Positions 44,801 through 64,000 of a stretch of 64,000 nt of DNA are shown here, in pieces. This DNA comes from Owenia fusiformis (lineage: Eukaryota). Every line of letters starts with the position of its first letter. Within the stretch, counting starts at the first letter, position 1. The stretch is from the NCBI GenBank assembly GCA_903813345.2, contig CAIIXF020000001.1, positions 558,001 to 622,000 of the forward strand. The letters are read 5' to 3'. A program made the position numbers and the translations under genes. The notes beneath the pieces were generated by a model. The model had not been told where the DNA came from and did no database searches. It worked only from the letters and a program-made list of their open reading frames with translations.

Positions 44801-47800
44801 GTTACATATCATTTATTACAGTTGGCCATACTATGGATACACTGGTTTATAAATGGCTTGATACTGAACCAGTTGCAAAAGAGCCGGGTTTGCAGTTGCC
44901 CCAATTTAATCTTAAAAAGTCATTATTACACGATTGTTCCCAAAACTACACGACAGGTCGGTAGGCATCCGCAAATGCATGCATGTTTATGTTATGATAA
45001 AATAGGTAAATAACCTACCTCACCCTACTATCACACCAAAGTAGTTCTCACTACGTTCTCGAAAACGGGCTTAAACTGTGCACGAACGGATTTGACGTAC
45101 TAAGAACCCACTACTTAAGTTAAGAACTTAGAGCATGCTCAAAAATTTCTGGTGATTGTCACATTCTGCAATCAGAACGAGTGACAACGTACTAGTGTCG
45201 TACTTCAATCCTACTAGGGACGTATTACGACGTTGTGTAGTGAGGCGTAAATTGCAGCCGTGAGTACCCCCAATTAGGAAAATAGGGGATTATAAATGTG
45301 TTCTGCACGGATTAGGGACACGGATGTTTACTATTTTAAAACGAGTTCAACCGTTTTTAAATTATGTGGATAATTCAGTAACATATTAGGACGTATTGAG
45401 AACGAGGTACAACTAATTGTCAACTGGTTTAAGCTGATTAAGGACGTAATTGAACTGCTTGGATACATTGTGTACACGAGACGAACGCACAATTTAACCC
45501 GATCTAAACTTGATACCAACGTACTGCAGACGGAATAAAGACGAGATGAACGTATTAAAAACTGCTTATGAACGAATTAACAAAAATAGCTATCACACCA
45601 GAACCAGTTGTCACTGCGTTGTTCAAAACGATGCCGAATCGGTTTTAAACTGTGTGCGAACTGAATGAACGTAGCTACAACATTCTACGGTCTGTTTACG
45701 AACTTCATGGACTTTCCCGAACGGGGAATGTGATTCAGAATTTTGAATCGATTCAATCGATTTATAATCAGGTCATGATGACCTTCTAGATTAGGGGACG
45801 CGTTATACGACGTTGCACACCGACGTGGCGCGACCTGAACGAACTGCGAATGAGATGGACGTATTGAAGACTGTTTATGAACGAAGTAGCTAATTATTTT
45901 AGACATATTTCCCGACCACAGCCATATTGAGCCCGTTTTACGACGTTTTTGTAGGACTGGCAAGAACGGGTAAGAACTAGTTTGGTGTGATAGGGGGGTA
46001 ACATACATTGTATACCCTTTAAACAATACAGAGTGTCGCATGCTGGCCTTACCTATTCAAAACAGCTTATTGAATTTTGTGGAAACCAAAGCAATGTACA
46101 CTCATCTAAATCTCATTATAAACACATTATGCAAATGATCTTATCCGTGGCCCTGGGTTTGTTTACATTACTGCGGAATTAAACTGATCGTGTCAGTAAA
46201 AATGGTGACCTTACCCTTCAAAAGTTCGGCGCGCGATATCACAGAGGCAAGTCTCTGGCCATAGGGAACTGATTGTACTTTGTAAACAATTGTAAACCTG
46301 TCAACAGAATAGTTAAAATTAGCGAAGTGACCTCTTTTGTTTACAATTGACAAAACGTAAAAATAGAAAACTTGTTACGAACTGAGCAGAGCAGTGCCGT
46401 TCCACCAGTTAAAGATGTTCAATCCAATGCCACGTACGTGCTACCACGGAATTGCCAACCTCCAGGGGTATCTTATGAATGAGCAATTCCGAAGTAACAC
46501 GTGGTCTTGCGTTGTATGCCTACAACTTTGTCTGGAGAAATATTACAAATGACACTTTCCAGCGCAGTTCGTGTAAAGCTATGTCGCCTTTTCTATTTTT
46601 TACGTTTTGGCGAATGTAAACAAATGAACTTGCTTGGCAAAGGCTTTACACTTACAATTGTTCTCTATTCAAAGTACTATAAATTCCAAGAGACTCGAAC
46701 TTTTGAAACATTTTCGTATGGAAAGGATCAGTTATGTTTCGTGGTAATCAAGATATACTGTTAACACTTCTCTAAGCTACACAACCGGCATTATAATGGC
46801 CTTTTTATACCCACCACCCATTTCCGTTCACTCGACTCCCGTTAGGTTACAGTAAAAAAATTTCGTTATATCCGTTCATTCGCCATATAAATAGTAAACA
46901 AAGCATTATATTTCAGGAAGACAGCATTTTGTTATGTAATCGATTGACGAGAGATTCGAAACCAAAACTGAATGCTCTTTTTTCGTACACAAGTCTCACT
47001 TATTCAGAATACTTGTATTTTATATATCGCGAATCATGATAGATAATGTTTTACTAGTCGGCAACATTTCATTATTTGAACGTCACATAGTGGTGATTTG
47101 TATAAATTGACTTTGTGATGTCAGTTTGCATACTGTAGTCTCCTTAATCAGTTTTTCTATTGTAGCAAAATAATTGTCAGTGACACAAACAGCAAAAACA
47201 ATTATGCATGTTGTTTGCTAATGTAATGGCTTACTGTTGTGTGATGTAATGATGTAAAATATGTTTATGATAAGAATAATCTGCAAAATGCACTCTATTT
47301 GAAATTTCGATAAGGAACATAATACAAAAGAACATTTCAAGAGGTCTCATAGTCAATTTATGAGTCATACATGTCTCATTATAGACTAAATGACGTCATT
47401 GTAATTGTTAGAATTGTATGCAAATAATGTTATTTTTACATGGTGCATTTTGTTGTTTATTGCTGTACGTTTTTATTTTTATTCGACTTTACCTGTTCTT
47501 GTGCACTGTTTTTAGTTGGACACACAATGGAAACATTGGTTTACAAATTTCTGCCGACTGCAGTGGATTACGAGGCATTAGATATATCAAATTTTATATA
47601 CAAAGGGGAAGCTTTGACTGATTGTTCTCAAAATTATTCAACAGGTATTTTCAAATTATTTCTTATTGCATCACCTCGATCTTGCTGAATGACGAAAATG
47701 ACAGTTTGTTTACGAAATACCATGTTTCCTGGTTGTTGTTTTTTTGTAACATTTTGAAAATTATACTTTCAAACAACAGACCTAGGCTAAAGCCTTTAAC

Positions 47801-48971
47801 ATAATGCCAGGAGTTTCACACTACAAACGGAAATCATAATCAAGGTGTATTGTAAGAATTCTACGTCATATCACACCACTTATGTGCATGTATTGTACTG
47901 TGTCTAAGTGTGCTTTTGCATGTTGTGTAATTTGTGAAATGTAGATCAGTTCGGTGTGAAAGTATATTATGAATTATTACTCCTTTATAAATATTATTTT
48001 AAGATATATGTACAGTAAAACTTAAGGAGGGGTGATGAAATAGCACAAAATGATACAGACAGATTAAATTCAAATGTTGCAATCAACTCCTTAAATAGTA
48101 GAAATTATCAGTGACCTAGTTCGTAAGAATAGCAGTTTAATCAAATATAAATTGATAAATAGAATAAAAATTATCACATTTTCTTGAAATAATACAACTG
48201 CAAATATTCAGCAACTAATATTAAAACATTCATGTACATTCCAGGTGCCTACCCATGCCTTCAAATCGATTTTATTCTCAAAAGGGACATTGGATACTAT
48301 ATGATCCAGCTCTATATACCCAGTGTTTTGATAGTTATTCTATCATGGGTAGCCTTCTGGATTAGCATTGATGCAATTCCAGCTCGTGTCACAATTGGAC
48401 TTCTTACAGTGCTTACAATGACGACACAGAGCACAGGAGCAAGATCTCAACTTCCAAGAGTATCTTATATCAAAGCCATAGACGTTTGGATGTCAACCTG
48501 CTTGTTGTTTGTGTTTGCTTCGTTACTTGAATTTGCTGTTGTAAATGTGTTTTCACGAAAGGAGGTCAAAACAAGGACAGCTGCAACTTTGAAGAGAAAA
48601 CGAAAAGAAGACGAGATGGCACTCGAACAGGTTTGTAAAACTATGCATGTTCTCTGACTAATACCTTACGAAGGTAATCGTTATTCGGAAAATGTTCTCA
48701 TCAATACATTTCATTACAAGTGATTAATATGATTATTATAAGATATGAACTAATATATAATATTTGGTATTCATTTCAGATAAATATAGTTACACACAAT
48801 GGAAGGGACTTCAAGGAAGTGAGAGAGAAAATAACCAAAACAAAATATATAAGAGACCCTGACGGAAGGCATAAAGCTAGAAGGATAGACAAAATTGCCC
48901 GAAAAGCTTTTCCTGGTGTTTTTGTAGCCTTCAATCTTATATACTGGGTAACATATAGCTTTTCAGAATGA
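29710..48971 (+). CDS. Gene 1 (spliced): glycine-receptor-like Cys-loop ligand-gated chloride channel subunit, 415-417 aa depending on cassette exon. Join 29710-29810, 37119-37177, 38249-38313, 39199-39341, 39609-39698, 39936-40018, [40639-40770 | 44822-44956 | 47516-47644], 48245-48630, 48780-48971
   Basis: All junctions are GT-AG and phases are consistent (1251 nt with cassette A). Contains signal peptide, loop D YLRQSW, loop [12 protein letters not shown], Cys-loop [15 protein letters not shown], loop C disulfide C...GAYPC, M1-M4, and the PAR motif before M2 (anion selective). Confidence 0.93.
31256..31829. mobile_element. Tc1/mariner-type MITE
   Basis: CAGGGGAGCCAAAAAGGTAAC / GTTACCATTTTGGCTCACCCTG-TA. 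Confidence 0.6.
32141..32466. mobile_element. EnSpm/CACTA-type MITE
   Basis: CACTCTTAAAAAT / ATTTTTAAGAGTG with 2-bp TSD TG; AT-rich internal ttactt repeats. Confidence 0.75.
33390..33926 (-). mobile_element. Older diverged H1 MITE copy, inverted
   Basis: Reverse-complement similarity to 17406-18197; ends GTTTGGTGTGATAGTAGGG. Confidence 0.75.
33930..34748 (+). mobile_element. H1 MITE copy
   Basis: Near-identical to 17406-18197; TTA flanks; 13-bp terminal duplication. Confidence 0.85.
37119..37177 (+). CDS. Gene 1 exon: (R)[19 protein letters not shown](G), N-terminal helix
   Basis: ttggcag acceptor, gtagtt donor; LL..Y....P pattern of Cys-loop receptor N-termini; phases 2/1 fit neighbours. 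Confidence 0.78.
37473..38110. mobile_element. Tc1/mariner-type foldback MITE (family T1), diverged copy
   Basis: TA-CACTACCCTCCAAAAGTTTGGCAACC...GGAGGGGGTG-TA; long internal inverted arms. Confidence 0.8.
38249..38313 (+). CDS. Gene 1 exon: (G)[21 protein letters not shown] (beta1)
   Basis: ttttatag acceptor, ATG|gtaaag donor; resembles the GlyR IFINSFGSI..TTM segment. Confidence 0.92.
38425..38748. mobile_element. Unclassified inverted-repeat element
   Basis: TGCCCGCGGTGCAAGT / ACTTGCGCCGCGGGCA arms. Confidence 0.55.
39199..39341 (+). CDS. Gene 1 exon: [17 protein letters not shown]...IWTPDVFF(R) (loops D and A)
   Basis: Within ORF 39139-39345; ccag acceptor, gtaaat donor; canonical WxDPRL and WxPD motifs. 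Confidence 0.95.
39609..39698 (+). CDS. Gene 1 exon: (R)[29 protein letters not shown](K) (loop E)
   Basis: tttcag acceptor, gtacgt donor; NEK..FH.VT..N.LLR...NG motif. Confidence 0.95.
39936..40018 (+). CDS. Gene 1 exon: (K)[27 protein letters not shown] (Cys-loop)
   Basis: ttttag acceptor, gtacgt donor; C-x13-C signature. Confidence 0.95.
40340..40355 (+). promoter_or_regulatory. Candidate splicing docking site ACGGTGTCACAAGGTC
   Basis: Complementary to related motifs at 44481-44498 and 47109-47125, and to local 40297-40313. Confidence 0.4.
40639..40770 (+). CDS. Gene 1 cassette exon A: (F)[43 protein letters not shown](G)
   Basis: 132 nt, phase 1-1, atttgcag acceptor, gtagaa donor, open frame. 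Confidence 0.92.
40804..42205. repeat. 31-bp minisatellite CGTATATGTGTAGTGTCCACAACATTATACT (~11 + ~6 copies) split by a T1 MITE
   Basis: Direct reading. Confidence 0.95.
41149..42024. mobile_element. T1 Tc1/mariner-type foldback MITE
   Basis: ~250-bp TIRs starting CACTCCCCTCCATAAGTTTGGCAACC; TA TSD confirmed by the interrupted minisatellite unit. Confidence 0.92.
42208..42840. mobile_element. Degenerate foldback MITE
   Basis: GTGGGTCACCATTCC / GGAATGTTGACCCAC outer arms; CCTTAGGGTCCCAAC / GTTGGGACCCTAAGG inner arms. Confidence 0.6.
43669..43792. repeat. ~62-bp direct tandem duplication
   Basis: aggtcgcttt...atgttgaccgtgttgtttagttca...ccaagggtgcattgca occurs twice. Confidence 0.9.
43832..44318. 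mobile_element. Unclassified TIR MITE
   Basis: GTATGAGAATAATAATGTCC / GGACATTTTTATTCTCATAC arms. Confidence 0.55.
44822..44956 (+). CDS. Gene 1 cassette exon B: (F)[44 protein letters not shown](G)
   Basis: 135 nt, phase 1-1, ttacag acceptor, gtcggt donor; not shown as such in the ORF track, translated by hand. Confidence 0.9.
45023..45998 (+). mobile_element. H1 MITE, longer variant, 66 nt downstream of cassette B
   Basis: Same TIRs and body as 17406-18197 with extra internal segments; flanks TCA/TAA. Confidence 0.82.
47516..47644 (+). CDS. Gene 1 cassette exon C: (F)[42 protein letters not shown](G)
   Basis: 129 nt, phase 1-1, tttttag acceptor, gtattt donor; within ORF 47440-47688. Confidence 0.87.
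48245..48630 (+). CDS. Gene 1 exon: end of loop C, beta10, M1-M3 and start of intracellular loop
   Basis: 386 nt; [10 protein letters not shown]...YIPS...SWVAFWI...[17 protein letters not shown]...[13 protein letters not shown]; ccag acceptor, gtttgt donor. Confidence 0.96.
48780..48971 (+). CDS. Gene 1 last coding exon: intracellular loop and M4, stop TGA
   Basis: tttcag acceptor; [24 protein letters not shown] is a typical M4 motif. Confidence 0.95.
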   Translation: MNIVTHNGRDFKEVREKITKTKYIRDPDGRHKARRIDKIARKAFPGVFVAFNLIYWVTYSFSE

Positions 48972-51900
48972 CACGATTCCAGGGTTTGGATATACATATT
49001 TGCTCTATAATGTGAATGAAACTATCATTTTGCATAGATGGATACCTTCTCAGTGAAGACTATGTAAATTATGCAGATTTTGTGATATCATTTTCTTGAT
49101 GAGCCACGTCAACTCCATTACAATTGTATAGTTATATTTATACTACTTGCTATGCTATAAGCTTATGGAAAAATCATCAAATACAGCACCACCCAAATCA
49201 TTAAGGTAAGAACTAATAGGTCGCAATAACATATCAAAATGCTTGAGTTGGTCTAGTTTAGTGCAAGTATTTTATGAATTGTGATATGATTTTATAACCG
49301 TGGATGGTCAAACTATTAGTCCATGGTATGAAATCTCTAGGACTTCTAATAAAGAAGCTGGTAGCATACTATGGCGCAGCGATATTTGACCTAATAATAA
49401 CATACCTTAACAATTTTTATTATAACCATTTAATGTACTTCCGGCTTTTAGGCTGAATTATGCCTGTCACTAGCAGAGGACAAAAAATTACCAAAAACTA
49501 AAATCAATACCCTAAATTATGTAATCCGTGCATCGGCGTTTTGTATGATTTCTCAGCCATTAATGTAGTAAATGTTACAAATGAATTACTTTGAATTCAT
49601 ATTAGAATGAGAAATGCTTAAATTATGCAAGTTTTTCACAAAATGGGTCTCGATATATTTTGATATATAGGCTGTTATTCCGCGGTGAACATTGTCAATA
49701 AAGGAGGGCCTCTTCTTTTTCCTTGACTAATTGCCACTCCTTCTAAAATTCTATTTCTTGTTGTTAGCTAGTGCTCAGTTGCTTATACAACAACCATCAA
49801 GACTTGGTCGAATTCATGAGTCAATGAGAAAAATCGCTAAATATCTTCCTAAAATCTGATGATATCCAGCGGTAAGGTCAAATAACCATCAGAAAATCTG
49901 ATGATAGCCAGCAGTAATGTCGAGGAATAATTGTAAGGCGTTCGATTGCATATGACTCTTACAGATTATTAGACATGCCCTTGGTATATATGAACATTCC
50001 AATACCTCTGTAACATTGAGTTGGATATAAATATTACATATTGTTATCGTCTTATGTATTATAAAACATGAACAATAACTTGTTATTTGACCCCTTGCGA
50101 TAATATGGATAAACTCTGGTAATAAAATGTTTTAAATGGTAAGAAAACTAACATGTTCGCAATCATAAATTACCTAAATATTCGACACACCTTTGTTGAA
50201 TCTGCTTTTCTTGTATTTGAAAAATCAAACAAAATCCGAAAAGTAGTGTAATTACACCAATTAAACACTGGCATTTTCAGTAAAATTATAGCAAATGTTT
50301 ACATTATGATAATCTAGTTTAGTGTCCATATACTTAAAATAACGGTCTGTGTCTTATGAAACTTCGAATCAAAATATTTACATTGATGAAAGACATTTTT
50401 CAAACCGAAAGGCGGAAGTTTTTTCAGCAAATGGTATTTAAAAAAATCAAGACATATGCACCTCCCTACATATTGCTTCAAATGTTGCTGCCCTATAGTG
50501 TGCTATGGATCATTTATATTTGGAAGTCATACCATAGACTATATCGTTCACATCAAATATGCATTAAATCACATTCTAAAAGTAAGATGGACTTAATTGT
50601 ATGTGTCATACTTCACTTATGTACAAATGTAAATGATATAAGATGTAAAAATCACCAACGATCATGTGCACATTGTTCACATTGACATATCATAACAATT
50701 AATTTGTAAATATGTTCATTTAGTATAAAAAGAGAGAAATGTGTGTATTACTAAAGAAACTTGAAAATGTAAAAATCATGTTCGATTCAAATTCGAAAGT
50801 AGTCTCTTTTTCAAATTAACTTCACTAGTTATGTTAATAAGCTTAGCTGCATCTATAATGTAACATGCCACTAGTCTATCAGTTACACTAACTTGTCTGC
50901 ACATGGGGACATTTTCTTACACCGTTCTATATCGTAATTTAGAAGTGAAGAATTGTCACGTGTTTATCGATTTTATGTTGCGGGAACACCATATTTAGTC
51001 GGCTCCACTCTTATACACATTCTTACTATTCATCCTATCGTCTCTATGTTTAATTGAGAAAAGACATATTGCTTTCGTTTATCTATTACGGTGCCATACT
51101 ACCAAGCGAAATTTAATAGGGATCAATATAGATGGCATATCATGCGTGAGTTGTTCTTCATCCTTGTCACATTATTTTTATGTTGATATTGATATTCAAA
51201 ATACATTACATTGATCTTTGACTAAGTTGATAATAATTCTTCTCGTTTCATAATCATTTTTCTAGATTTGCTAGATTTGATTAAATTAATTTTGGGCAAT
51301 GAATTGTATTTAGATGTTAAAAAATGCCATCTTTTGACGTCATCGAGGCCTTTAGGATAACCATATATAGAAAAGGTATCCTGACAAAGATCCGTTTTAA
51401 CGTTTTAACGAGGAATGAATGGCGTATTGTGCAGGTGGTTTAAATATGCTGTGCTACCGATTTCACCTTCCAATTCTACAACTTTACAGTCATACAAATA
51501 CTTAGTTATAAAGATACTTGGTATCATATATTGCTGATGTCATCAATGGAACTGCTAATAGACTTATTTCAGAATAATGATTTGAACAAATTGATAGCTG
51601 TATTTTGGTATTGTATCCTATAAAATCTTTATGTGAAATAAAAATGTAGCTATCAAGTTTAGTCTTAACTTTAGTTTTAGGCGTTCTGATAATCCAAAAT
51701 GTTTAAAATGTTATTCAAAACAAATTAGAAATATTTATAATTATTGTGTTTTCATTTCCCGAACATCGTAAAGTATTGCGACCTGTATTGGAATTAGGGT
51801 ATTGTATGTATTTCTCCAGTTCTTTACAAGTAAGGGCTTTGTAAGACTTTTCAAAAAAGTGTGTTGGTTTATGCTGAATTTAAGTAGTATAACCTTGAAA

Positions 51901-52252
51901 ATCATCGATGTACTTGTGATATACTTGTGATATACTTTTCCAGCTGTAAGTTATATGTGTTACTTGTGAAAATGTCTTTCATTACCATGAAGTTGTACCT
52001 GTAAGATACTCATGATCACTGATGACTTTAGCACACCCAGTTAAGTATTGTCGACTTCTTCCACAAACAAGAAAAACTGGAATATGATATAAGGGTTTTT
52101 ATTGTTTTAAATTAAATTAAATATTACCCACATCATATTTCAATTTTTGTTGCGTGATGGATTGAACTATTCTAGTGCTTACATGTAATTATGAAAAATA
52201 AAAAGCCTAAAGATATTATATTGTCTGTAATTTATAAATTTAAGCAAACTAA

Positions 52253-52540
52253 CCCGCCTATCACACCAATTCCGTTCTTTCTAGTCCTACAAAGATGTCG
52301 CAAAACGAGCTAAATATATATGACCGTGGTCGGGAAAATTATCTACTTCGTAGTAGGTCACCTCGTTTGAAGTACGTTGTTACACAATTGTTACACGATA
52401 TTGTTATCGAAATTTGAAATGGTTCAAAATTCTAAATCACACTCCCCTCTGAGCATGTCTATAAAGTCCAACCCGTTGGTACATAGTTCAAGCCCGTTTT
52501 TTGAGAAGGTAGTGAGAAATAGTTTGGTATTATAGTAGGG
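52253..52540 (-). mobile_element. Internally deleted H1 MITE
   Basis: Both degenerate TIRs present. Confidence 0.65.
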
Positions 52541-52981
52541 TTACATATAGCGTACATATGCGTGCCAATGCCCTAGAGGCATGGCAGACTTGTTGAAAAA
52601 GTAATACGATCATAAACTACGACAAATAAGTAAATAAGCATTCAACTCTACATTTATCAATGTCATGGTGATGTTCAGAAATTAAACAAGATTTGATATC
52701 GTTAAAACTGCGCATTTGTAAGCTTTCAAGAATTATTTCTACTTCAACTTTTGAGGACTGTTGACTTAACGCTACATCGATGCTCGTACTACTTAAGTCA
52801 TCACTTTAGAACTAAAAATCTGCTTCCTTCCTCTCCCAATGTCAATTTCTATTTCTTTCAACGCATCTTCAAATGCGATATTATGGTGTATTTTGTTGAA
52901 TGCATGATAACGAACGAAAAATGTCTACATAGTTTAGTCAATCATGAACGAAATGGACGTACATTGGTCCAGTCATTTAAA

Positions 52982-53530
52982 CCCCTATCACACCAAACTA
53001 ATTCTCAACCGTCCTAATACAAAAAGTCGTAAAACGGGTTTAGTCTGGGTGTAGTCGGGAAATAGTACTTCAATTTACGCCCGGCTACACAACGTGGTAA
53101 TACGTCCCGAGTAGGATTGAAGTACGACAGTTCCGTTTAAGAGAACGTCCAATTCGTCTTATGTACGTTATCACTCGTCCTAAAATGCATCAACGTTTGT
53201 AAATAGACCCCAAACAGTTCTAAGTACGTCGAATCCGTTCGTACATAGCTTGAGCCTGTTTTAGATAACGTAGTGGGAACTAGTTTGGTGGAACACCCTA
53301 CTATCACAACGTCACAATTTTCTGATGGTCATCGCGTTCTGCAATTAGAGCGGAGGGCAACGCACTTAAGACGACCTGAAGGTACTACGAACGGAACTGT
53401 CGTACTTCAAACCAAGTAGAGATGTTTTTAGAAAGTGATAAATTGTCCGAGGACGTATTTTGAACAAGATAGAACTGATTGCAAACGGGTTTCATACTAG
53501 TTGGCACTGCGTTCTTCAAAAGGTTTCCGA
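52982..53530. mobile_element. Two degenerate H1 MITE pieces, head-to-head (minus 52982-53290, plus 53297-53530)
   Basis: Similarity to the H1 body on opposite strands on either side of ~53293. Confidence 0.6.
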
Positions 53531-54699
53531 ACTGGCTTTAGATATATGTGCATATATCCATATAATATATAAATATATTTTCACAGCATTGTGGAGGTCA
53601 TTACTAAACCACCGCACCAATGCCCCATCCTATACATCTGCTCTTATCAAAACCACGATTACTAATGACCTTCAGATGGAACAACTCATCCATGCTGCCT
53701 ATTAATCAGATGAGGCGATTTGTGATTTTGGTGTGTTCAAACCGATGACGGACAAGATGAGAGGATTCAGATATGCGACCTTTACAGACCTCCACAATGG
53801 CGTAAAAATGCCCTGAGGAAACGTTTTCTCGATGGGTTCAGATCCATGTTCCACGAATGGGTTCAACGCTAGAACAATTGTATCAAAACCACGAAAACTA
53901 TTTTGAGCATTTTAATTGAAACATGTGTTACCATAGTAACCATATTTTTAGTCCAATGAGAGTAAAGTGCATAAAATTTGTTACACCAATTGCTTAATCC
54001 ATTTTACATATTCTGTGAAAATTTCAAATAAAAATCCACAAAACTTTTGATTTAAATAGATTTTTCTCAGAACTTATTGATCGACCTGGTATATCGCAGA
54101 ATTTAACTGTTTAGTGAGTAGGGTTATGCGTAGTTGAGGGGCATTGGAAAGTGGTGGAGATTTAAGAAGTATAATGCGAAAAAGATCAATTTTTGACGTA
54201 TTCCTGAGATCAAATCCATCTCATTTTGACGCAATAAAAGCTGCCGAAAAGAATAATCTAAAGACATCATAAAGATATACATAGCTAATTGTCATTCAAA
54301 AAACCAAAGAGTTTGAGCCATTTACTTCATTTTGATCAGGTCATATAGATGGCTCATTTGAGCAATAGAGGTAATGATTATTGAATACGGCCGTAGTAAT
54401 AAAATAACCTTAACCCCAAAATGCCTGAGTATGCCAGACCAATCCTAAAAAGTTAAATGTTTACCTCATCCTCGACTCATCTCACAAAACACACACAACA
54501 TGGCATAATAGTTTCTGTTGAGTACTTGGTCTTGGAGCTAGTCTAGCCATGTGCAATGTCAACGGTACTAATAAAGTATGTCCCTTTAGTCCATTTAAAT
54601 TTCTAATTTTGATTTTTCTCAATGTTAACATAACGAGGAAAGAGAAAACTGCATGTCAATAAAAAATCAAAGTGATCACTTAGGCTATACCCCTTTCGG

Positions 54700-55485
54700 G
54701 CATTTGAAAGTTAATGTTACACTTTTCATATGCTTGTTGGCATTTGGAGGTTAATGTCATAATTTTGATATGCTTGTTCGCATTTGAAGTTTAATGTTAC
54801 AATTTCCATATGCTTGTTCGCATTTGAAGTTTAATTTTACAATTTCCATATGCTTGTTCGCATTTGAAGTTTAATGTTACAATTTCCATATGCTTGTTCG
54901 CATTTGGGGTTTAATGTAACAGTATCCATATGCTTCTTGGTATTTGAAGGTTAATGTTACAATTTTCATATGCTTGTTCGCATTTGACGATTAATGTCAC
55001 AATTCCACATGCTTGTTGGCATTTGGTGTTTAATGTAACATTATCCATATGCTTCTTGGTATTTGAAGTTTAATGTTACACTTTTCATATGCTTCTTGGC
55101 ATTTGAAGTTTAATGTTACACTTTTCATATGCTTCTTGGTATTTGCAATTCAATGACACTATTTCCATATGCTTCTTGGCATTTGAAGGTTAATGTTACA
55201 ATTTTCATATGCTTCTGAGCATTTGTTTAATGTCACAATTTTTATATGCTTCTTGGTATTTGAAGTTTAATGTTACACTTTTCATATGCTTCTTGGCATT
55301 TGAAGTTTAATGTTACACTTTTCATATGCTTCTTGGTATTTGCAATTCAATGACACTATTTCCATATGCTTCTTGGTATTTGAAGGTTAATGTCATAATT
55401 TGCATATGCTTCTTGGCATTTGAAGTTAATGTCACAATTTTCATATGCTTCTTGGTATTTGAATTTTAATGTTACACTTTTTATA
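54700..55485. repeat. 40-bp minisatellite GCATTTGAAGTTTAATGTTACAATTTCCATATGCTTGTTC, ~20 copies
   Basis: Direct reading. Confidence 0.95.
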
Positions 55486-55593
55486 AGCTCGTTGAAGAAT
55501 TGAATTGAATAAAAAATAAATGAATAAATAAAGAAATATAGGGTAATCGTACAGGTACAAGTCGGACTACACTTTCAACCAACCCATGCTCCC

Positions 55594-55802
55594 CATGTCT
55601 TGGACGATAGGGTCACAAAACCTCCACATGTCCGAATTAGATCTTCCTCAATTTTGCTTTGATCCATAGTTGTACCCTACAAGGATCTACAGTCTACTTG
55701 CTTCCCATCTCCAAGAATCCTTGTAGGGTACAACAATGGATCAAAGCAAAATTGAGGAAAATCTGATTTGGACATAAGGGGTGTCCCAATCCGTCGAGAA
55801 TG
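55594..55802. repeat. Foldback inverted repeat, probable small MITE
   Basis: ~43-bp near-perfect arms at 55644-55686 and 55717-55760. Confidence 0.75.
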
Positions 55803-56278
55803 CAAGACCATGATGAATATTTAAAAAACACATAATATAAGATCCATGAACAGGATTCATCACACGGTCTTGTGTGGAGCCGGTGTAAAAGGGTAGGTGG
55901 TCCTATCAAATTTTGGCTCTATTCTCTATTGTTTTTTTATGGTGACCTAATTACAATTATTTTCCCTATTATTTATACACAATCAGGGCCAGTAAGGACC
56001 GTAAAGAAAGGGGACCATAATCCCCAGGGACCATAATTTCCTTTACACCGGTATTCCCAAACCTTTAGAGGGGTGTATTTCTGTGTATGTTTGATGAGGT
56101 TTTGGTATACATTGCGTGGTTACTCATTAAAATAACACTGTAATAGTCGAACACAATCGTGGGTTTATTCAGTAATAAATTGAGCTTAAAATGTAATGAT
56201 GGTGCAAACGTGTGTTTCACAGTATGTTACATTATGACGCAATATTATATTTTAATAAAATAGTACAAACATAGAGTG

Positions 56279-56458
56279 TCATGCAAACTTGTATGTGAGC
56301 CAGTATATCAAATTAAAAAGAACAAATGATAAGGGAAACATCTTTCTTGCTAGTTTATCAATATATCTGGCTCTATTCCTCCCTTCTCCATCACGAACAA
56401 ATGGTCGTTTCTCTTTGACTTCTTTAAAGTCCCTTCCATTCCGAGTGACTACTTTAAT
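56279..56458 (-). CDS. Gene 2 last coding exon with M4
   Basis: ttttccag acceptor; [14 protein letters not shown]...[18 protein letters not shown] on the minus strand at 56164-56169. Confidence 0.95.
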   Translation of the reverse strand: MKVVTRNGRDFKEVKEKRPFVRDGEGRNRARYIDKLARKMFPLSFVLFNLIYWLTYKFA

Positions 56459-59107
56459 CTGGAAAATAGTATTTAAACACATTGAGTCAAAATAAGGAGG
56501 TTATACATCGGGAGATGTACAAATTGTTTAAATTTATACAAAGGGATCCGATGATTTTTCCGAGTTTGACGGATATATCACTCTGAATGAAGATTCCAAT
56601 ATACAATCCAGACCTTTTTATATCATAGATGATATTAAAAAATAATGATAAGTTATCAAAACTCAAACACTATTAAACGTCTTTAGGAGGCAAGTATGCA
56701 GAATATATAAGTACATGGAATATAACAAAATAGTAATCGTATTTATCAAAGTGATTTGCTTTATATAATTTATATTACAGCGACCATGGTATGGGAGAAA
56801 AAAAGGAGGATGACATAATGATCACATTCTCCATAATAAGTTTGGCAACAGGGGGACTCGATTTGCTCACCTATCGAAGCATACACTCCCCTCCATAAGT
56901 TTGGCAACCTTTTTTCCACCATTGAACTACGTGTTAAAGCCTCTTTACCTTTGAATTTTTATTTACTTAACCTGCGATGAAAATACTTATACTATTGATG
57001 GAAACGTAATTTGACTTTAATTCCAATACCTCAAAATTTTCTTAATTTTTTTCCTCAATTACAATAGGTCGAAAATTGATGATTAATTTGATGAATTTTT
57101 AAAAATCGACATTCCCATGTTAACCAATGAGAAATGGTAGGTTTGCCGCAAGTCATATGACAGAATATCCATCCATCCGAGTCCTTGCAAAAAATACGAG
57201 TTAGGCAGGCAATTGAATTTACTAACTTTATTTAACAAAAAAATGATATGTTTCTTCAGGTTCAACAAAGTTATAGGGCTTTAAAGTCAAAATTGTTTTT
57301 CAAAAAACCTCTCCCATTGAAATAACACAGGAGGCGAAAAATTATTTTCAAAAATGACTTTGAAGCGCTGTAACTTTAATATTCATCAAATAAACTAAAC
57401 ACTTAGTGTTCAAAAAAGTTAGACAATTCAATTTTCTATATAAAAATATTTTTTGCTGAATCTTTTACTGAAAATATATCCTGATTTCTGATTTGCCCCG
57501 AACCCTCCATTTCCCATTGGATAACATGGGAATGACGATTTTCAAAAATTCATCAAATTATCATCAATTTTCGACCTATTGTAATTGAGGAAAAAATTGA
57601 GAAATTTGGAGGTATTGGAAATAAAGTCAAGTTACGTTTCCATCAATAGTTTAGATTATTTCATCGCCGGTTAAGTAAATAAAAATGCAAACGTAAAGAG
57701 GCTTTAACACGTAGTTCAATGGGGAAAAAAGGTTGCCAAACTTATGGAGGAGAGTGTATGCTAATAAATGTCCAAACTATCAGGAACAGAATTGAGATTT
57801 AATTATTCACAGATTTTAATAATTTAATTATTCACAGGCTTTTTTAAGTGATAAGATGAGAACCTCCGGTTACCAAACTTAATGAGGGGAGTGTAGCTGT
57901 TTACCTGCTCAATCGTCACATGCTCTTCCTTTAACTTCCTGTTCCCATTAAGTGTCCTATTTCTCCTCATTTCCTTTCTTGAAAATACATTAACAACAGC
58001 AAATTCTAAAAGGGACGCAAACACAAATAATAAACACGTTGACATCCAAACGTCTATGGCTTTAATATAAGATACTCTTGGAAGTTGAGATCTTGCTCCT
58101 GTGCTCTGTGTTGTCATTGTAAGCACTGTAAGAAGTCCAATTGTGACACGAGCTGGAATTGCATCAATGCTAATCCAGAAGGCTACCCATGATAGAATTA
58201 CTATCAAAACACTGGGTATATAGAGCTGGATAAGATAGTATCCTATGTCTCTCTTGAGTATAAAATCGATCTGTAGGCATGGGTAAGCACCTGGAACACG
58301 ACATAACGGGGGTAAAAGTCAATATACAAATCCATTTTAAAATCATAAGCGCAGGAAATGTTTACGTTTTGATGAGTTAAATCTTCTAAGTGAACAATTG
58401 ATAAGTTTATCATATACAGTCATTCACTTGGTTTAACCATTAATGATCCAAATCTTAAAATGTGTTCTGCAATTTATATTTTAAAACATTCATACAAACA
58501 CTGTATAGCACAATACTCCACAGTCAGACATAATACATTTTCCCACGAAATTGAACAGCAAACACGCCATATTGGTTATTGATTGCCACCAATACTCGTT
58601 TTTTCCCGAACAAAAACCTACCTGTGGTATAGTTTTGAAGACAATCCATCAATTTATTACCTACATATCGGTATTGTGGCAGTTCAAGATTGGAATCACC
58701 AGCGACTGGCTTAGGTTGTAACCATTTGTAATGCAATGTTTCCATTGTATTGCCAACTAAAATCATATAATTATCAGCCCTCTTGAACGAGGCGTCCTAC
58801 CATGTGAACATCATGCAGTTCCATGGTCCAATTTGGATGAACTATAACGTTTATGTTTTCATTCACTGTCCAAATTGGGCCAAGTTCATTGATGTCGTGT
58901 TTAGACCACCATACAGCATAGTTTTACAGTGGTCTAAATCAGGACATGAGGTGGTCACCTGGTTTTTACCTGTGCTGTAGTTCTGTCTGCATGTTTGCAA
59001 TTCATAGCCGACGTATCTGAATTGAGGTAATTCTGGTTCCTGCCCCATATCTAATGGTTGTGGGTCTGTTAGCCATTTAAAGTTAACAGCATCCAACGTG
59101 TTTCCGA
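56279..59107 (-). CDS. Gene 2 (partial, 5' exons beyond window): paralogous GlyR-like chloride channel subunit. Join complement of [59107-58970 | 58756-58622], 58290-57905, 56458-56279
   Basis: Same exon structure as gene 1, including a 386-nt TM exon; GT-AG sites; PAR motif; M4 [23 protein letters not shown]. Confidence 0.92.
56884..57756. mobile_element. T1 Tc1/mariner-type foldback MITE in the last intron of gene 2
   Basis: Very similar to 41149-42024; TA flanks. Confidence 0.92.
57905..58290 (-). CDS. Gene 2 exon: end of loop C, M1-M3
   Basis: 386 nt, ttccag acceptor, CAG|gtaaac donor; protein nearly identical to gene 1 through M3. Confidence 0.96.
58622..58756 (-). CDS. Gene 2 cassette exon Y: (F)[44 protein letters not shown](G)
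   Basis: 135 nt, phase 1-1, ttttag acceptor, gtaggt donor (minus strand). Confidence 0.9.
58970..59107 (-). CDS. Gene 2 cassette exon X: (F)[45 protein letters not shown](G)
   Basis: 138 nt, phase 1-1, atttgcag acceptor, gtaaaa donor (minus strand). Confidence 0.9.
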
Positions 59108-59284
59108 CTGCAAATACAATTTTGGTGGGGTATTTATACCTCCGAAGGGACACGGCGCGAGAGCAGCAGAAGCGGCAACAAGTGAATTGCAAATTGCTAA
59201 GCGTAGCTCTCGATGGCCGTGATTTGTAGATCAAACCGCAACAATATTGATATGAAATAGGGTATTATATTGAATCAGAAGAAC

Positions 59285-61283
59285 TGTGACGATCCTGCTC
59301 GTCATTTTCTATATTTATATCATTTCTCCTTACCTGGTACCTTGATCTTGATTGTAGTTGAGAAAATCACGTATAATTACTTTGTATTGAGCTTCAAATT
59401 CACGAAACTGTTTTGATTTTAAATTTGTTTACATTTTTCATGGAGGCCGCCATTTTGGATGGTCATGTGACTAGGAAATTATCTCATTTATATTTTTGAT
59501 TTTCTGTCATATAAAGAGCACTTTTAAAACTTAACTGGAACGTAACATGTTCTTATGATGTTATCAATCATGTATTTTGATGTTGCAAACATATTGTTAT
59601 ATGTTTAGACTTTGATGTATAAAAACGTTTTGTTTGAGTTTCGAGATTAACTTGTACACTCTGACATTGTGGACAGCCATTGATAGTTTGGGAAATCAGC
59701 TGTTTTCGTAATCAAGAATCGTTTTGAAGCCTAGAGAATCGTTTTGAAGTCAAAGATGTGTTTCTAAAGAAGGCCAACATGCCCGGGATGACGACAAAGC
59801 TCTTTGAAAACTGGGTGAGATATATTAGTGTATAATTTTGGTGATTTCACTGGCTGTTTACAATATTATTTAGCCGTAATAATTTTGCTGATTCTGATCC
59901 CATCTTTGGATTGTCTTTCTATTCATGTAGACGGAATATAATTTAGTCATTTACGAATAAAGATAGTAAGTTATTTTAGCAGTTTATATCTTTTTCTGTT
60001 GGATCATTGATGATCAGAGTGTGTCATAACCAACCATTTACCTGAACTATTCTACTTTGTCCACAATTGCTTCTGTCCACAATTGCTTCTGTCCACATTT
60101 GGGTTTGTACACAGTTGTAATTTGTCCACTTTACAATTCCCAACCCCCTAAATGGAAGACACAGCCTTACCTTGAAGACACAGTTCCTTTTAACAAGTGA
60201 TGTATGACCTGATATAGCAATTATAATATCTGTCCCTCCCAAATCTGATTTTCACTCATACAAGAAGGAGTGCTGCCCAAATTTTTCTTAAGTTTGGACT
60301 TAGAATATTTTCCCCTCCCCAATCTGATTTCCACTCATACTAGGGGAAGTGCTGCCCAAATTTTCCTTCCCCATGCTGGCCTAATATAACTCAAAACATA
60401 TTTGTCCACAGCTGTCATTTGTCAACAATTGTACAATTACACTTTGTCCACAATTGTGAAATCATATTTGTCCACAACTGTCATTTGTCCACAATTGTAC
60501 AATTACACTTTGCCCACAATTGTGAAATCACTTTTGTCCACAGTTGTCATTTGTCCACAATTGTGCAATTACACTTTGTCCACAATTGTGCAATTACACT
60601 TTGTCCACAATTGCGAAATCATACTTGTCCACAGTTGTCATTTGTCAACAATTAATCACACAGTGAGTCTTCACCCCTTCCATAGAGCCTTATAAATGAG
60701 AACAAGACGGTAAGTGACATATTCGGGGTTTTTGGTCCTAATAGAGCACGTTACCAATTCTATGATTTTTGTGGAAGCAGGACCAGAAACTTCACAGTGT
60801 TGGCTAAAGCGGTGGGATATGGATAGTGATAGTGGTACGTCTACTTTTGTGAACTGATTGGCTCGCGCATTATATCAAGATCGTGTTTTGCGTCATTTTT
60901 TTCTCATTATTCGGGCAGTGTAAACAAATTTAGTCATTCCCAAATTGTTAACACACATGTGTTTAGCTGCAAAAGGAAAACTCTTTGTGTGATACTTCTT
61001 TATGCTTGGGATTGTTTATTGTTTAAAATAGATGACCAGCTTGTACTCTTGCATTGTATGTTCTGCAAAACCTGAAGTGAAGAATAAACGAATGTCCACA
61101 TTGATGCAAGGCTGGATTTTTGAAGTCACAGCCATTTCTTCTAAGTGAATAAACCAGGTGTATGATTAAGTAAATAAAAATAAATTTTGTTATTTACTTG
61201 TTGTTTCATATTTGTGTGAAGAATAAAGTTGTATGTTGTCAACTGTAATAAATTGATCTGTGTGAAACTGTGGAATCTCTTAC
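59285..61283 (+). mobile_element. Putative 5' LTR/leader of a Gypsy-like element, interrupted by repeats
   Basis: Starts TGTGACGA, candidate end TCTTACA, lies directly before the gag-like ORF; second LTR not in window, boundaries uncertain. Confidence 0.35.
60053..60660. repeat. TTTGTCCACAATTG-based tandem repeats (60053-60130, 60401-60660) around a ~80-bp duplication
   Basis: Direct reading. Confidence 0.85.
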
Positions 61284-61305
61284 ATGGGAATAACTTGTGT
61301 GAAAT

Positions 61306-63006
61306 ATGGCCACGTCAGCTACTGAAAATACTTTGGAGACGACAAAGGACACAGCTCTACCATCTGAGGCATCTACTGAGCAAATGGAAGCCACAGATTT
61401 TGACATGAATGATGAGCTACTACAGTCAGCATTTGGTGATGGTGAAGTACATTGTAGTTTGCAGTCTAGACGTCAAAGAAAGGAACGAGATGTACACAAG
61501 ATGGCCTATGAATGCTGTGACACAGATGTCCTTAATATTGATACTGATGAACTGAAGAAAATTGCCGATCTCCCACAAATGAGATCTGTACCATTTGAAG
61601 ATAATTTGTACCCCAATAATTTCATGGATGATAGATGTCAGAGAAAATCTGCGACAATTGATGCTTTAGATCTGAGGAGTGATTTGAGATGGAACATGCC
61701 CAAAACGCTTATGAAATCACGAAGAAGACCTTTGTTAATGTCGATGAAAATCAAGACAGAATCTCTGATGCCTACAAATAATGATAATGACAAGCTTTTA
61801 TTGTCAGGAGCTGAAGCTATACCAAAAAGAACCCACATGCAAGTGCATGAAATGAAACGTGACGTTAAAGAAAAAGAGCAGACTTGTGAAGATAATAAGT
61901 TATTTTCACCCTCAGCATTTCCGACAGGAGCCAATGATTGTCCGAGAGAAATTTCAAAGCCAAGACTCAAAAGACAAGATGCTTTTTATCAGATGCCAAT
62001 GCCACAACCGAACTACCATGATGTATTATATGCTCCAATAGTGAAACTTGATGGTACAAAGGATGATTCTTCAGTGCTGCTTGGTGATGGCTTTGAGAGA
62101 CAGGCAGTCTACCTGAAGTCACAGAGACAACAGCCATCACTATTCCAGGATGATAAAACAGAAACTAAAGACAGAATTGTCCCACAAAAGTTTTCCCAAT
62201 CGGTGCATATTCCGTATGTTTCATCACCCTACAATTGCATGCAATGGGGAGATTCAGACCTTGATGACACAGGATTGATGACAGACCAAGAATATGTGCT
62301 GGACCAGGGTTATCGAATGCCATTGCTGAAAAAACCTAGAAATGATGATCGAAGTTACAGCGCTGATCTATATGGGCACCGAATTAGTGAGAGACCTTTG
62401 ACTAACCAATATATCAGTGTGAGAAGCCTAGGTCACGGGTCATGCTCTGATGAAAAGCTACCTAAATCTGACAGAGAAATGAAAGCTAAGGGAAAGTTTA
62501 TTGAACCCCAAAACGATGTTGATGTGGACGCTTGTGTGTCTTTCGCCAAGTCTGAGACACAGAATGAGGCACCATGTGTATCTCTCCAAGATGAAGCACT
62601 CACAAAAGGCCATGAGAAGAGAATTGTGACTGAACCTGATACAGTGTTCCAAATTGTAGCTTTGAAAAAAACAGCTAATCTTCCAAGTAAGGAACCATTT
62701 CAAGCCATGATGGATGATTTCAGAGCAGACATGCAAAGTTTGGTTACATCAGAAGTGGAGAAGTTGGAACAACAGTTGATGAAAAAGCTCATGAAAAAGA
62801 CAGAGAAGGAACCCAAGAAGAACAAGAAGAGGCGGGTGTATTGCAAACTCTGTGACTGCAGGGAACACTCAGTCTTCAATTGTGAATTCAGGCACCCTAA
62901 TTCACAGAAGCACGGATCTAAGGCTTGCTTCAGATGCGGGGAAGAAAACCACAGTGTGATGGACTGCCCCAAGGGCAGCCCCGAGCCAAAGGGCTCAGGA
63001 AACTAG
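61306..63006 (+). CDS. Gag-like ORF (566 aa) with two C-terminal CCHC zinc knuckles; Ty3/Gypsy LTR retrotransposon-derived
   Basis: CKLCDCREHSVFNC and CFRCGEENHSVMDC, ends SGN*; followed by a degenerate protease motif IPAIVDSESD near 63120-63150. Confidence 0.72.
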   Translation: MATSATENTLETTKDTALPSEASTEQMEATDFDMNDELLQSAFGDGEVHCSLQSRRQRKERDVHKMAYECCDTDVLNIDTDELKKIADLPQMRSVPFEDNLYPNNFMDDRCQRKSATIDALDLRSDLRWNMPKTLMKSRRRPLLMSMKIKTESLMPTNNDNDKLLLSGAEAIPKRTHMQVHEMKRDVKEKEQTCEDNKLFSPSAFPTGANDCPREISKPRLKRQDAFYQMPMPQPNYHDVLYAPIVKLDGTKDDSSVLLGDGFERQAVYLKSQRQQPSLFQDDKTETKDRIVPQKFSQSVHIPYVSSPYNCMQWGDSDLDDTGLMTDQEYVLDQGYRMPLLKKPRNDDRSYSADLYGHRISERPLTNQYISVRSLGHGSCSDEKLPKSDREMKAKGKFIEPQNDVDVDACVSFAKSETQNEAPCVSLQDEALTKGHEKRIVTEPDTVFQIVALKKTANLPSKEPFQAMMDDFRADMQSLVTSEVEKLEQQLMKKLMKKTEKEPKKNKKRRVYCKLCDCREHSVFNCEFRHPNSQKHGSKACFRCGEENHSVMDCPKGSPEPKGSGN

Positions 63007-63330
63007 ATGAGACTGATTCAGTGGGTCCAGAATCAGCCGAGACCTCTGTTGGACCCACTTAAATTGATGGCACAACCCGCAAAGGTCTTGCTGTGCATTT
63101 TAATATTTGGAAGTTCCTGATACCAGCTATTGTTGATAGTGAATCTGATGTGTATAATATTCCCACAAAGGCGAGATGGATGAATATATCAACAAAGGCC
63201 ATGTCTCAAACATAGAGATGACTGATGGAAGACCTGTTGAAGTGCATTGCATTGTGAAGTGTGAGTTTGGAATTAAAGATGCAAAAGTGAAACTTGATTG
63301 ATGGCTACAAATGTGTAATTTGCGAAAAAA
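63007..63330 (+). pseudogene. Decayed retroviral-type aspartic protease region
   Basis: AIVDSESD (DSG motif altered) among stops; no long ORF to the window end. Confidence 0.45.
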
Positions 63331-64000
63331 GACATTACATTTAAGAAGCTGAATTTACAGTTGTGATGGATACACTGATGGAGACTTGACATTCATCCGG
63401 TTGGTTGAATAAATGAAATGGACTTATTACCCATGTGTGAATGAATAAAGACTAATTGTGAGGAGTGCATGTGAAAACTAATTGTTTGTAATTGAAATTA
63501 TTCATCATTGTTTTCTTCAACTGGAAATAGTAGATATGACACAGTATTCAGAACCGGCCGGACTGAAAACATGTCTACTTGAACAATCGTGCATTATTTT
63601 ATTGTAGCAAAATATTTTGATTAATATTAAGAATCTCAGTCTGTAACACTAGCTATTTTAATGACATATGGAGTCACAGAAAATGATGGTGATGCATTGT
63701 ATTTGTATATAGATGTTTTGATAAAGACTGGGAATAAAGATTGAGATGAGAGAATTAGATGATCAGTATGTTTTAATGTTACTTGATTGTCTTGATAAAT
63801 AACACAAGCGTTACATTTGGTAGAATGTTTTGGATGTATAGACTTCGAAGATATGACTATGAACCTAGAGTGTGATTTAGTGTAAACCCTCAACTGAGCC
63901 TGAGACCCAAGTGTCATGTTGTGATGAAACAAACAGTGAGAGTGTCGCCCATGTGTAAAGTAGAAGTCAAAGGTGAAGCACCAGGCAATCTACATGGAAA

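Follow-up and report, generated by a model that had tools for sequence, protein, structure and literature searches.

Introduction

Several Cys-loop receptor genes of insects carry tandem-duplicated alternative exons, and one account lists exons 3 and 6 of RDL, exon 3 of the glutamate-gated chloride channel (GluCl) gene, exon 4 of the nicotinic acetylcholine receptor (nAChR) subunit alpha4 and exons 3 and 8 of nAChR alpha6 (PMC2064938). For RDL, alternative exon 6 is described as generating variety in loops C and F that likely affects agonist potency (PMC4019635; PMC2064938). Alternative exons that rewrite loops F and C act as a compact multiplier of receptor pharmacology, a device well studied in the insect targets of insecticides. 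Outside the Ecdysozoa, lophotrochozoan GluCls are traced to a glycine-receptor-like group, independently of the ecdysozoan ones, in a further study (PMC4178172). Here, we analyzed a stretch of 64,000 nt from the annelid Owenia fusiformis (contig CAIIXF020000001.1, positions 558,001 to 622,000; hereafter the window, to which all coordinates refer), in which two paralogous genes of this type lie tail to tail, gene 1 on the plus strand and gene 2 on the minus strand. Both genes are annotated with isoforms that differ at one and the same exon, for which gene 1 has three candidate cassettes (A, B and C) and gene 2 has two (X and Y). We consider it probable that gene 2 is a tail-to-tail paralogue of gene 1 in which the alternative exons X and Y would tune the ligand-binding loops, and somewhat more likely than not that the cassette arrays of the two genes expanded after the gene duplication.

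Results

Exon organization of gene 2

The minus strand of 56279-59107 contains the 3′ half of gene 2, namely X, Y, the exon encoding M1-M3 and the last coding exon, in the following order of transcription.

59108-64000, minus strand: 3′ part of the long intron preceding X; the gene 2 exons for residues 1-194, further 5′, lie past 64000
58970-59107, minus strand: cassette X, an alternative exon of 138 nt with symmetric phase, defined by translation and splice sites; in isoforms P0026, P0153 and P0028
58757-58969, minus strand: intron between X and Y, 213 nt, GT..AG, with two small hairpin-forming inverted repeats (I8, I24) inside
58622-58756, minus strand: cassette Y, an alternative exon of 135 nt with the phase of X; in isoforms P0027 and P0028
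58291-58621, minus strand: intron between Y and the M1-M3 exon, 331 nt, defined by a splice joint and sequence
57905-58290, minus strand: constitutive M1-M3 exon, 386 nt, encoding the end of loop C (AYPC), beta10, M1, M2 with the PAR motif, and M3
56459-57904, minus strand: intron between the M1-M3 exon and the last exon, 1446 nt; joint 56458>57905 in sequencing runs X9 and X14
56279-56458, minus strand: last coding exon, encoding the end of the M3-M4 loop and M4, stop codon included, defined by translation

The 3′ untranslated region (UTR) extends at least to ~56146, as contigs reach 56146/56148. Gene 1 ends at ~48968-48971 and the gene 2 stop codon starts at 56279, leaving a tail-to-tail gap of 7311 nt, in agreement with the 7.3 kb given in a preliminary description made from the DNA letters; the two intact cassettes, their lengths and the length of the intron between them were likewise as described there. 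X and Y are neighbouring homologous exons that agree in phase and nearly in length, and AG and GT sites border each of them. Both read in frame +2, X as GNTLDAV...CRQNYST and Y as GNTMETL...CLQNYTT, and their splice flanks are canonical (slashes mark exon borders; ...tttgcag/TCGG...ACAG/gtaaaa for X, ...attttag/TTGG...ACAG/gtaggt for Y). The two share 50% amino-acid identity, with differences at 22 of the 44 aligned cassette positions plus one indel. Their open frames, canonical sites and intact G-x-T, W, LPQ[FY], C and QNY[ST]T positions, at a third-codon-position identity of 36%, make both look maintained.

The public annotation lists four products for gene 2, under consecutive accessions that adjoin the two of gene 1.

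P0026: gene 2, X only, 428 aa
P0027: gene 2, Y only, 427 aa
P0028: gene 2, X and Y together, in frame, 473 aa
P0153: gene 2, X plus an 11-residue micro-exon (EDILKDGTRIH) after exon 2, the exon lying outside the window, 439 aa
P0044: gene 1, A only
P0045: gene 1, B and C together

The isoforms are thus already in public protein databases, as unnamed products. In the annotated gene 2 proteins (427-473 aa), the ligand-binding domain at the N-terminus is present in full. Since this domain is complete in P0026, while its residues 1-193 found no minus-strand match in the window by tblastn, the 5′ exons of gene 2 exist but lie past 64000, and gene 2 is therefore not a fragment. The possibility raised in the preliminary description that it might be a pseudogene fragment is also countered by the presence of both cassettes in spliced contigs (see below).

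Protein family and the region encoded by the cassettes

P0026 matched the Pfam domains Neur_chan_LBD (PF02931, E 1.1e-44) and Neur_chan_memb (PF02932, E 6.3e-38), and the M1-M3 exon alone matched the latter at E 4.7e-34. This exon, which contains the motif IPARV, is 100% identical to Owenia fusiformis proteins and 87% identical to the equivalent exon of gene 1. The signature Cys-loop, two cysteines 13 residues apart, reads CPMDLAKYPLDEQKC in P0026-P0028 and is encoded by an exon outside the window; its cysteines, C174 and C188, are invariant in 29 sequences. The loop-C cysteine pair (C279 and C290 of P0028) consists of a nearly invariant cysteine from the cassette and the invariant cysteine of AYPC. 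A PAR motif at the start of M2 together with a second disulphide across loop C are marks of anion selectivity of the glycine receptor (GlyR)/GluCl type. Judged by its sequence, gene 2 encodes a subunit of a Cys-loop anion channel of the glycine-receptor/GluCl-like group.

The best solved relatives were the glycine receptors alpha-2 and alpha-3 (E ~1e-108), in which the cassette aligned to GYTMNDLIFEW...CTKHYNTG. In terms of GlyR anatomy, the cassette runs from the end of loop B through beta8, loop F and beta9 into the first arm of loop C, and the first cysteine of the loop-C disulphide falls within it. All five cassettes keep G-x-T, the beta8 Trp or Phe, the Cys and QNY[ST]T, and all but C keep LPQ[FY]; they vary at the loop-B position, in loop F and in beta9. 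As for the contact residues of glycine receptors, the loop-C Y and T are found in all five cassettes, and the Tyr of the loop-B Phe-Gly-Tyr, present in most relatives, is replaced by Asn in X, Y and A and by His in B and C.

Transcript evidence on the use of X and Y

Four sequencing runs (X9, X14, X18 and X19) were mapped to 39900-59200, and 15 of the 34 joints were listed. All gene 2 joints were GT..AG on the minus strand. The joint 58288>58968, which connects the M1-M3 exon to X and skips Y, was found in contigs of X9 and X14, and the joint 58288>58620, from the M1-M3 exon to Y, in an X14 contig and a single raw RNA read of X19. Of the spliced contigs, the longest is X9 record 10 (864 nt); it consists of 56148-56458, 57905-58288 and 58968-59139, corresponding to the last exon, the M1-M3 exon and X, again with Y skipped. 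X9 record 12 (704 nt) starts within Y (58677-58756) and has no X piece among the pieces listed; its other 624 nt lie off the mapped stretch, a length for which 585 nt of coding sequence upstream and a short leader or UTR would account, which suggests that Y is joined straight to the upstream exons, without X. The annotated isoforms run from ...CPMMFESF directly into X or Y.

We also observed that X9 record 10 extends 32 nt past the X acceptor into the upstream intron (59108-59139, minus strand) and then ends, with TATAAATA at the end of the extension. This extension could be unspliced precursor, an assembly tip or an internal start.

History of the two cassette arrays

The cassettes of gene 1 to which X and Y were compared are the following.

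40639-40770, plus strand: cassette A, 132 nt, in isoform P0044; joint 40016>40639 from exon 6 to A in run X14
44822-44956, plus strand: cassette B, 135 nt; joint 44953>48242 (cut +3) to the M1-M3 exon, with C skipped, in run X14
47516-47644, plus strand: cassette C, 129 nt, annotated only in the B+C isoform P0045, with no joint among the joints listed

A tblastn search with X recovered Y (E 1e-11) as well as A, B and C (E 2e-7 to 1e-4), and a 27-cassette profile drawn from several species, run against the six-frame translation of the window, matched exactly five places (E <= 1.7e-17; next match E 0.3). The similarity among the cassettes is far above chance. Neither tblastn nor the 27-cassette profile found a further or decayed cassette in the 64-kb window, including 59108-64000. 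The suggestion in the preliminary description that more cassettes may lie past 64000 gained no support, as none turned up in 59108-64000 and the isoforms pass from ...CPMMFESF into X or Y.

In a gene tree from which the cassette columns had been removed, genes 1 and 2 were sisters (94/94), with 71% identity over 364 columns. The cassettes are more divergent, with identities of 38-60% between the genes, and Y is closer to A (60%) and B (55%) than to X (50%). Because third-position identity between cassettes is only 26-48%, the duplications are all old. The cassette tree (27 rows, 44 columns) sorted the cassettes by gene, into (A,B,C) with 98/92 and (X,Y) with 88/79. On this topology we lean towards an independent expansion in each gene rather than an ancestral array, by a modest margin of confidence. 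The preliminary description had left both histories open, and it is the independent one that these groupings support better; against it, the alternative groupings survived the approximately unbiased (AU) tests, in which X+A (p-AU 0.24), Y+B+C (0.36) and Y+A+B+C (0.30) were all not rejected.

The competing history, to which we give a clearly smaller but still appreciable chance, is that a two-cassette array is older than the gene duplication, with X orthologous to A and Y to B/C, and that divergence or conversion within each gene produced the present grouping. Besides the AU results for X+A and Y+B+C and the closeness of Y to A and B, it draws on the splice acceptors, for the first cassettes A and X have tttgcag/TC in common (tttgcag/TCGG in both, as described before), while B, C and Y start ag/TTGG; the nemertean His-type cassettes, which match across species in their N-terminal part and within species in their C-terminal part, add a hint of partial conversion. 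However, the difference between TC and TT amounts to one synonymous base, the nearest non-Owenia relatives examined have one cassette each in the annotation, and the best tree groups by gene, as under independent expansion.

The motif RYVG is a poor sign of an origin specific to X and Y. It is present in the translations of both and not in those of A, B or C, but R-F/L-V/I after LPQF also occurs elsewhere, as RFVK in Dimorphilus and RLIT in Ridgeia, each with a single cassette, and as RLVE/RLIK in two Owenia paralogues (P0084, P0095). Because of these similar motifs, RYVG was probably retained from an ancestor rather than being a private mark of X and Y.

Proposed mode of choice between X and Y

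We propose that X and Y are alternative versions, made by tandem duplication, of the exon for a single structural module, and that the spliceosome would join one or the other to the constant M1-M3 exon, giving two subunit isoforms of 428 and 427 aa. The QNY(S/T)TG contact motif, the loop-C cysteine pair, the Cys-loop and the pore would be the same in both. With a constant pore and no change in the other binding loops, the expected effect is one of tuning, in agonist potency or selectivity, modulation or interface compatibility, and ion selectivity should stay unaltered. The variants might, as the preliminary description suggested, be combined in homo- or heteropentamers. Presumably X is skipped when Y is used, and the choice between the two would have a functional consequence; it is presumably made by regulated splice-site selection, through trans-acting factors or RNA structure.

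X and Y are candidates for mutual exclusion. The five cassettes X, Y, A, B and C (138, 135, 132, 135 and 129 nt) are all multiples of three, so that co-inclusion or double skipping stays in frame and exclusivity is not enforced by the reading frame. An intron of 213 nt, as between X and Y, should be too long for steric exclusion. The preliminary description named co-inclusion of X and Y as grounds for refuting it, and the annotation does contain the in-frame isoform P0028, which has both.

Several results speak against the exclusive use of X and Y or weaken the data behind it. P0028 (X+Y) and P0045 (B+C) are both annotated, and an X+Y product would contain neither a frameshift nor a premature stop. 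Evidence for docking/selector RNA pairing was not obtained, as duplex energies among the three introns were no better than those of 100 shuffles (z -0.57, +0.47 and -0.16) in a crude comparison in which whole introns were folded. Runs X9 and X14 consist of assembled contigs that carry no RNA label and were taken as RNA because the contigs are spliced. The upstream constitutive exon is outside the window, so its joint to Y is not directly visible; an X-to-Y joint, absent among the 15 joints listed, could be among the other 19; and raw RNA depth over gene 2 (bins 57932-59200) was 0 in X18 and 0.12 in X19, too low for usage ratios. As to RNA structure, inverted repeats in 58250-60000 were short, with five perfect arms of 10-11 nt, where ~1.5 10-mer arms are expected at equal base frequencies and more in AT-rich DNA.

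The in-frame X+Y transcript might be a genuine, translated isoform whose beta8 comes from X and whose beta9/loop C comes from Y, while ~45 residues near loop F are looped out; X and Y would then not be strictly exclusive. An AlphaFold2 model of P0028 (mean predicted local distance difference test score, pLDDT, 67.9) gave pLDDT ~77-89 for residues 196-215 (the start of X) and 258-299 (Y from beta9 onward) and < 50 for 216-243, which suggests how a co-included product could be accommodated and is not evidence that it exists. We nevertheless regard this reading as improbable. The joint between the M1-M3 exon and X that skips Y was seen in two runs, the X+Y product would have an unpaired loop-C cysteine, and gene predictors often concatenate in-frame duplicated exons; the co-included form most likely reflects an error of gene prediction or else is a minor product. 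That one cassette, most likely the faster-evolving X with the longest end branch of the five (1.12 vs 0.41 for Y) and the lowest identity to the others (38-50%), is a decaying or noise exon without a function of its own is very improbable, as the frame of X is open, its splice sites are canonical and every conserved structural position is retained although silent sites are nearly saturated; X is also carried by X9 record 10 and used alone by two annotated isoforms.

The cassette exon in other spiralians

We inspected the annotated isoforms of 10 other gene clusters and found variation at exactly the cassette exon in three of them.

Lineus longissimus, cluster 4: three cassettes among the annotated isoforms
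Tubulanus polymorphus, cluster 5: two cassettes among the annotated isoforms
Lineus, cluster 6: two cassettes, differing in four residues, among the annotated isoforms

The other seven (three Owenia paralogues, Lineus cluster 7, Lingula, Babylonia and Patella) were without variation at this exon. The alternatives of nemertean clusters 4 and 5 switch between Tyr and His at the loop-B position. A His-type clade across Owenia and the nemerteans was neither supported nor rejected (p-AU 0.21-0.22), 44 columns being too few to resolve it. Protein searches with the cassettes alone, that is, with the X and Y regions of P0026 and P0027, returned only Owenia proteins (2 of 2 and 2 of 3 candidates), a result limited by the word index and no proof of uniqueness. 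Among the 120 matches listed for the M1-M3 exon, the only two-cassette proteins were the two Owenia co-inclusion models.

As a speculative extension, which we hold to be unlikely on present evidence, the exon for loops B, F and C may be an ancient hot spot of tandem exon duplication, repeatedly re-expanded across Spiralia and seen in two Owenia paralogues and at least three nemertean genes, in which the dichotomy between His and Tyr/Asn at loop B (GHTMDT... vs G[YN]TM[DE]T...) would be older than the split of annelids and nemerteans and would have been blurred by partial gene conversion. If true, spiralian glycine-receptor-like channels would switch their binding-site chemistry by splicing, as insects do with RDL exon 6, at a larger scale.

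Two further observations concern other parts of these proteins. The annotated isoforms of Tubulanus polymorphus cluster 5 (P0070, P0138 and P0139) include three alternative C-terminal versions, comprising the M3-M4 loop and M4. Many of the top longer matches of the M1-M3 exon (e.g., nematode UNC-49-like, AVR-14-like and rotifer GABA-beta-like proteins; GABA, gamma-aminobutyric acid) contain two or three M2 PAR regions per predicted protein, probably because alternative 3′ halves, or alternative pore exons, were strung together in the annotation.

Other features in the introns

The introns of both genes contain additional elements.

31129-31191, plus strand: unannotated exon-2-like sequence in the first intron of gene 1, with a tag/ acceptor and a /gtaacc donor
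61306-63006, plus strand: open frame of 566 aa, antisense in the long intron of gene 2
~60400-60650, minus strand: imperfect tandem repeats of CAATTGTGGACAAA-like units in the long intron of gene 2
56881-57750 (gene 2) and 41146-42000 (gene 1): repeated element with inverted ends, in one intron of each gene

The exon-2-like sequence has the length of the annotated exon 2 of gene 1 (37117-37179) and is closer to exon 2 of gene 2 (66.7% identity, tblastn); it may be a second alternative-exon site, and exon 2 also differs between annotated isoforms in Owenia P0111/P0126 and in Lingula cluster 8. The 566-aa frame matched only a CCHC zinc knuckle at its C-terminus, below the threshold (E 0.0031, 18 bits vs a cut-off of 20.8), and the frame is probably a gag-like retroelement remnant. 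The repeated element took most reads in all four runs, with depths of up to hundreds, and gave rise to cross-joints (e.g., 41166>56881, and also to 41146-41349); it looks like an expressed or multi-copy transposon family outside either mRNA.

Comparison with known systems

Vertebrate GlyR alpha subunits share with gene 2 the Cys-loop, the loop-C disulphide, the PAR motif and the conserved loop-C Y and T, whereas they have Tyr at the loop-B position, where X and Y have Asn; the likeness is one of sequence. Vertebrate GlyRs are not known to have an alternative loop-C exon. In GLRA2, an alternative exon 3 lies elsewhere in the domain. Closer in phylogeny are the glycine-receptor-like isoforms predicted in RefSeq for the nemerteans Lineus longissimus and Tubulanus polymorphus, which belong to the same spiralian family and vary at the same exon. 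However, they are different genes, clusters 4 and 5 fall in another subclade of the gene tree, and their Tyr/His switch at loop B differs from the Asn of both X and Y. A literature search, with most subscription journals and supplements outside its reach, found no report on annelids, nemerteans or molluscs with alternative loop-C exons in their Cys-loop receptors.

The closest analogue is exon 6 of insect RDL (6a/6b, formerly c/d), which likewise belongs to a Cys-loop anion channel and offers tandem alternative exons for the same structural region. RDL differs in that it belongs to the GABA-gated subfamily and to another phylum, and its two variants, a pair conserved across insects, have few residue changes, whereas the Owenia cassettes X and Y are only 50% identical and two adjacent paralogues each possess an array (3 + 2). 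Mutually exclusive exons from tandem duplication are likewise described for GluCl exon 3 (3a/3b/3c), nAChR alpha6 exons 3 and 8 and nAChR alpha4 exon 4 (PMC2064938, PMC13512814). GluCl exon 3 adjoins loop D, not loops F and C, and the exons, phyla and subfamilies of these examples differ from those of Owenia gene 2.

The class of mechanism is already textbook knowledge in insects, and the Owenia locus presents no new kind; its only mildly unusual features are that neighbouring paralogues both carry an array and that one exon is affected repeatedly across Spiralia. For genome annotation, the cassette exon is probably a site where gene predictors wrongly concatenate duplicated exons. An early-branching annelid here has the device known from insect receptors, in five cassettes spread over two neighbouring paralogues, and with it a natural series of binding-site variants over a constant pore for structure-function work.

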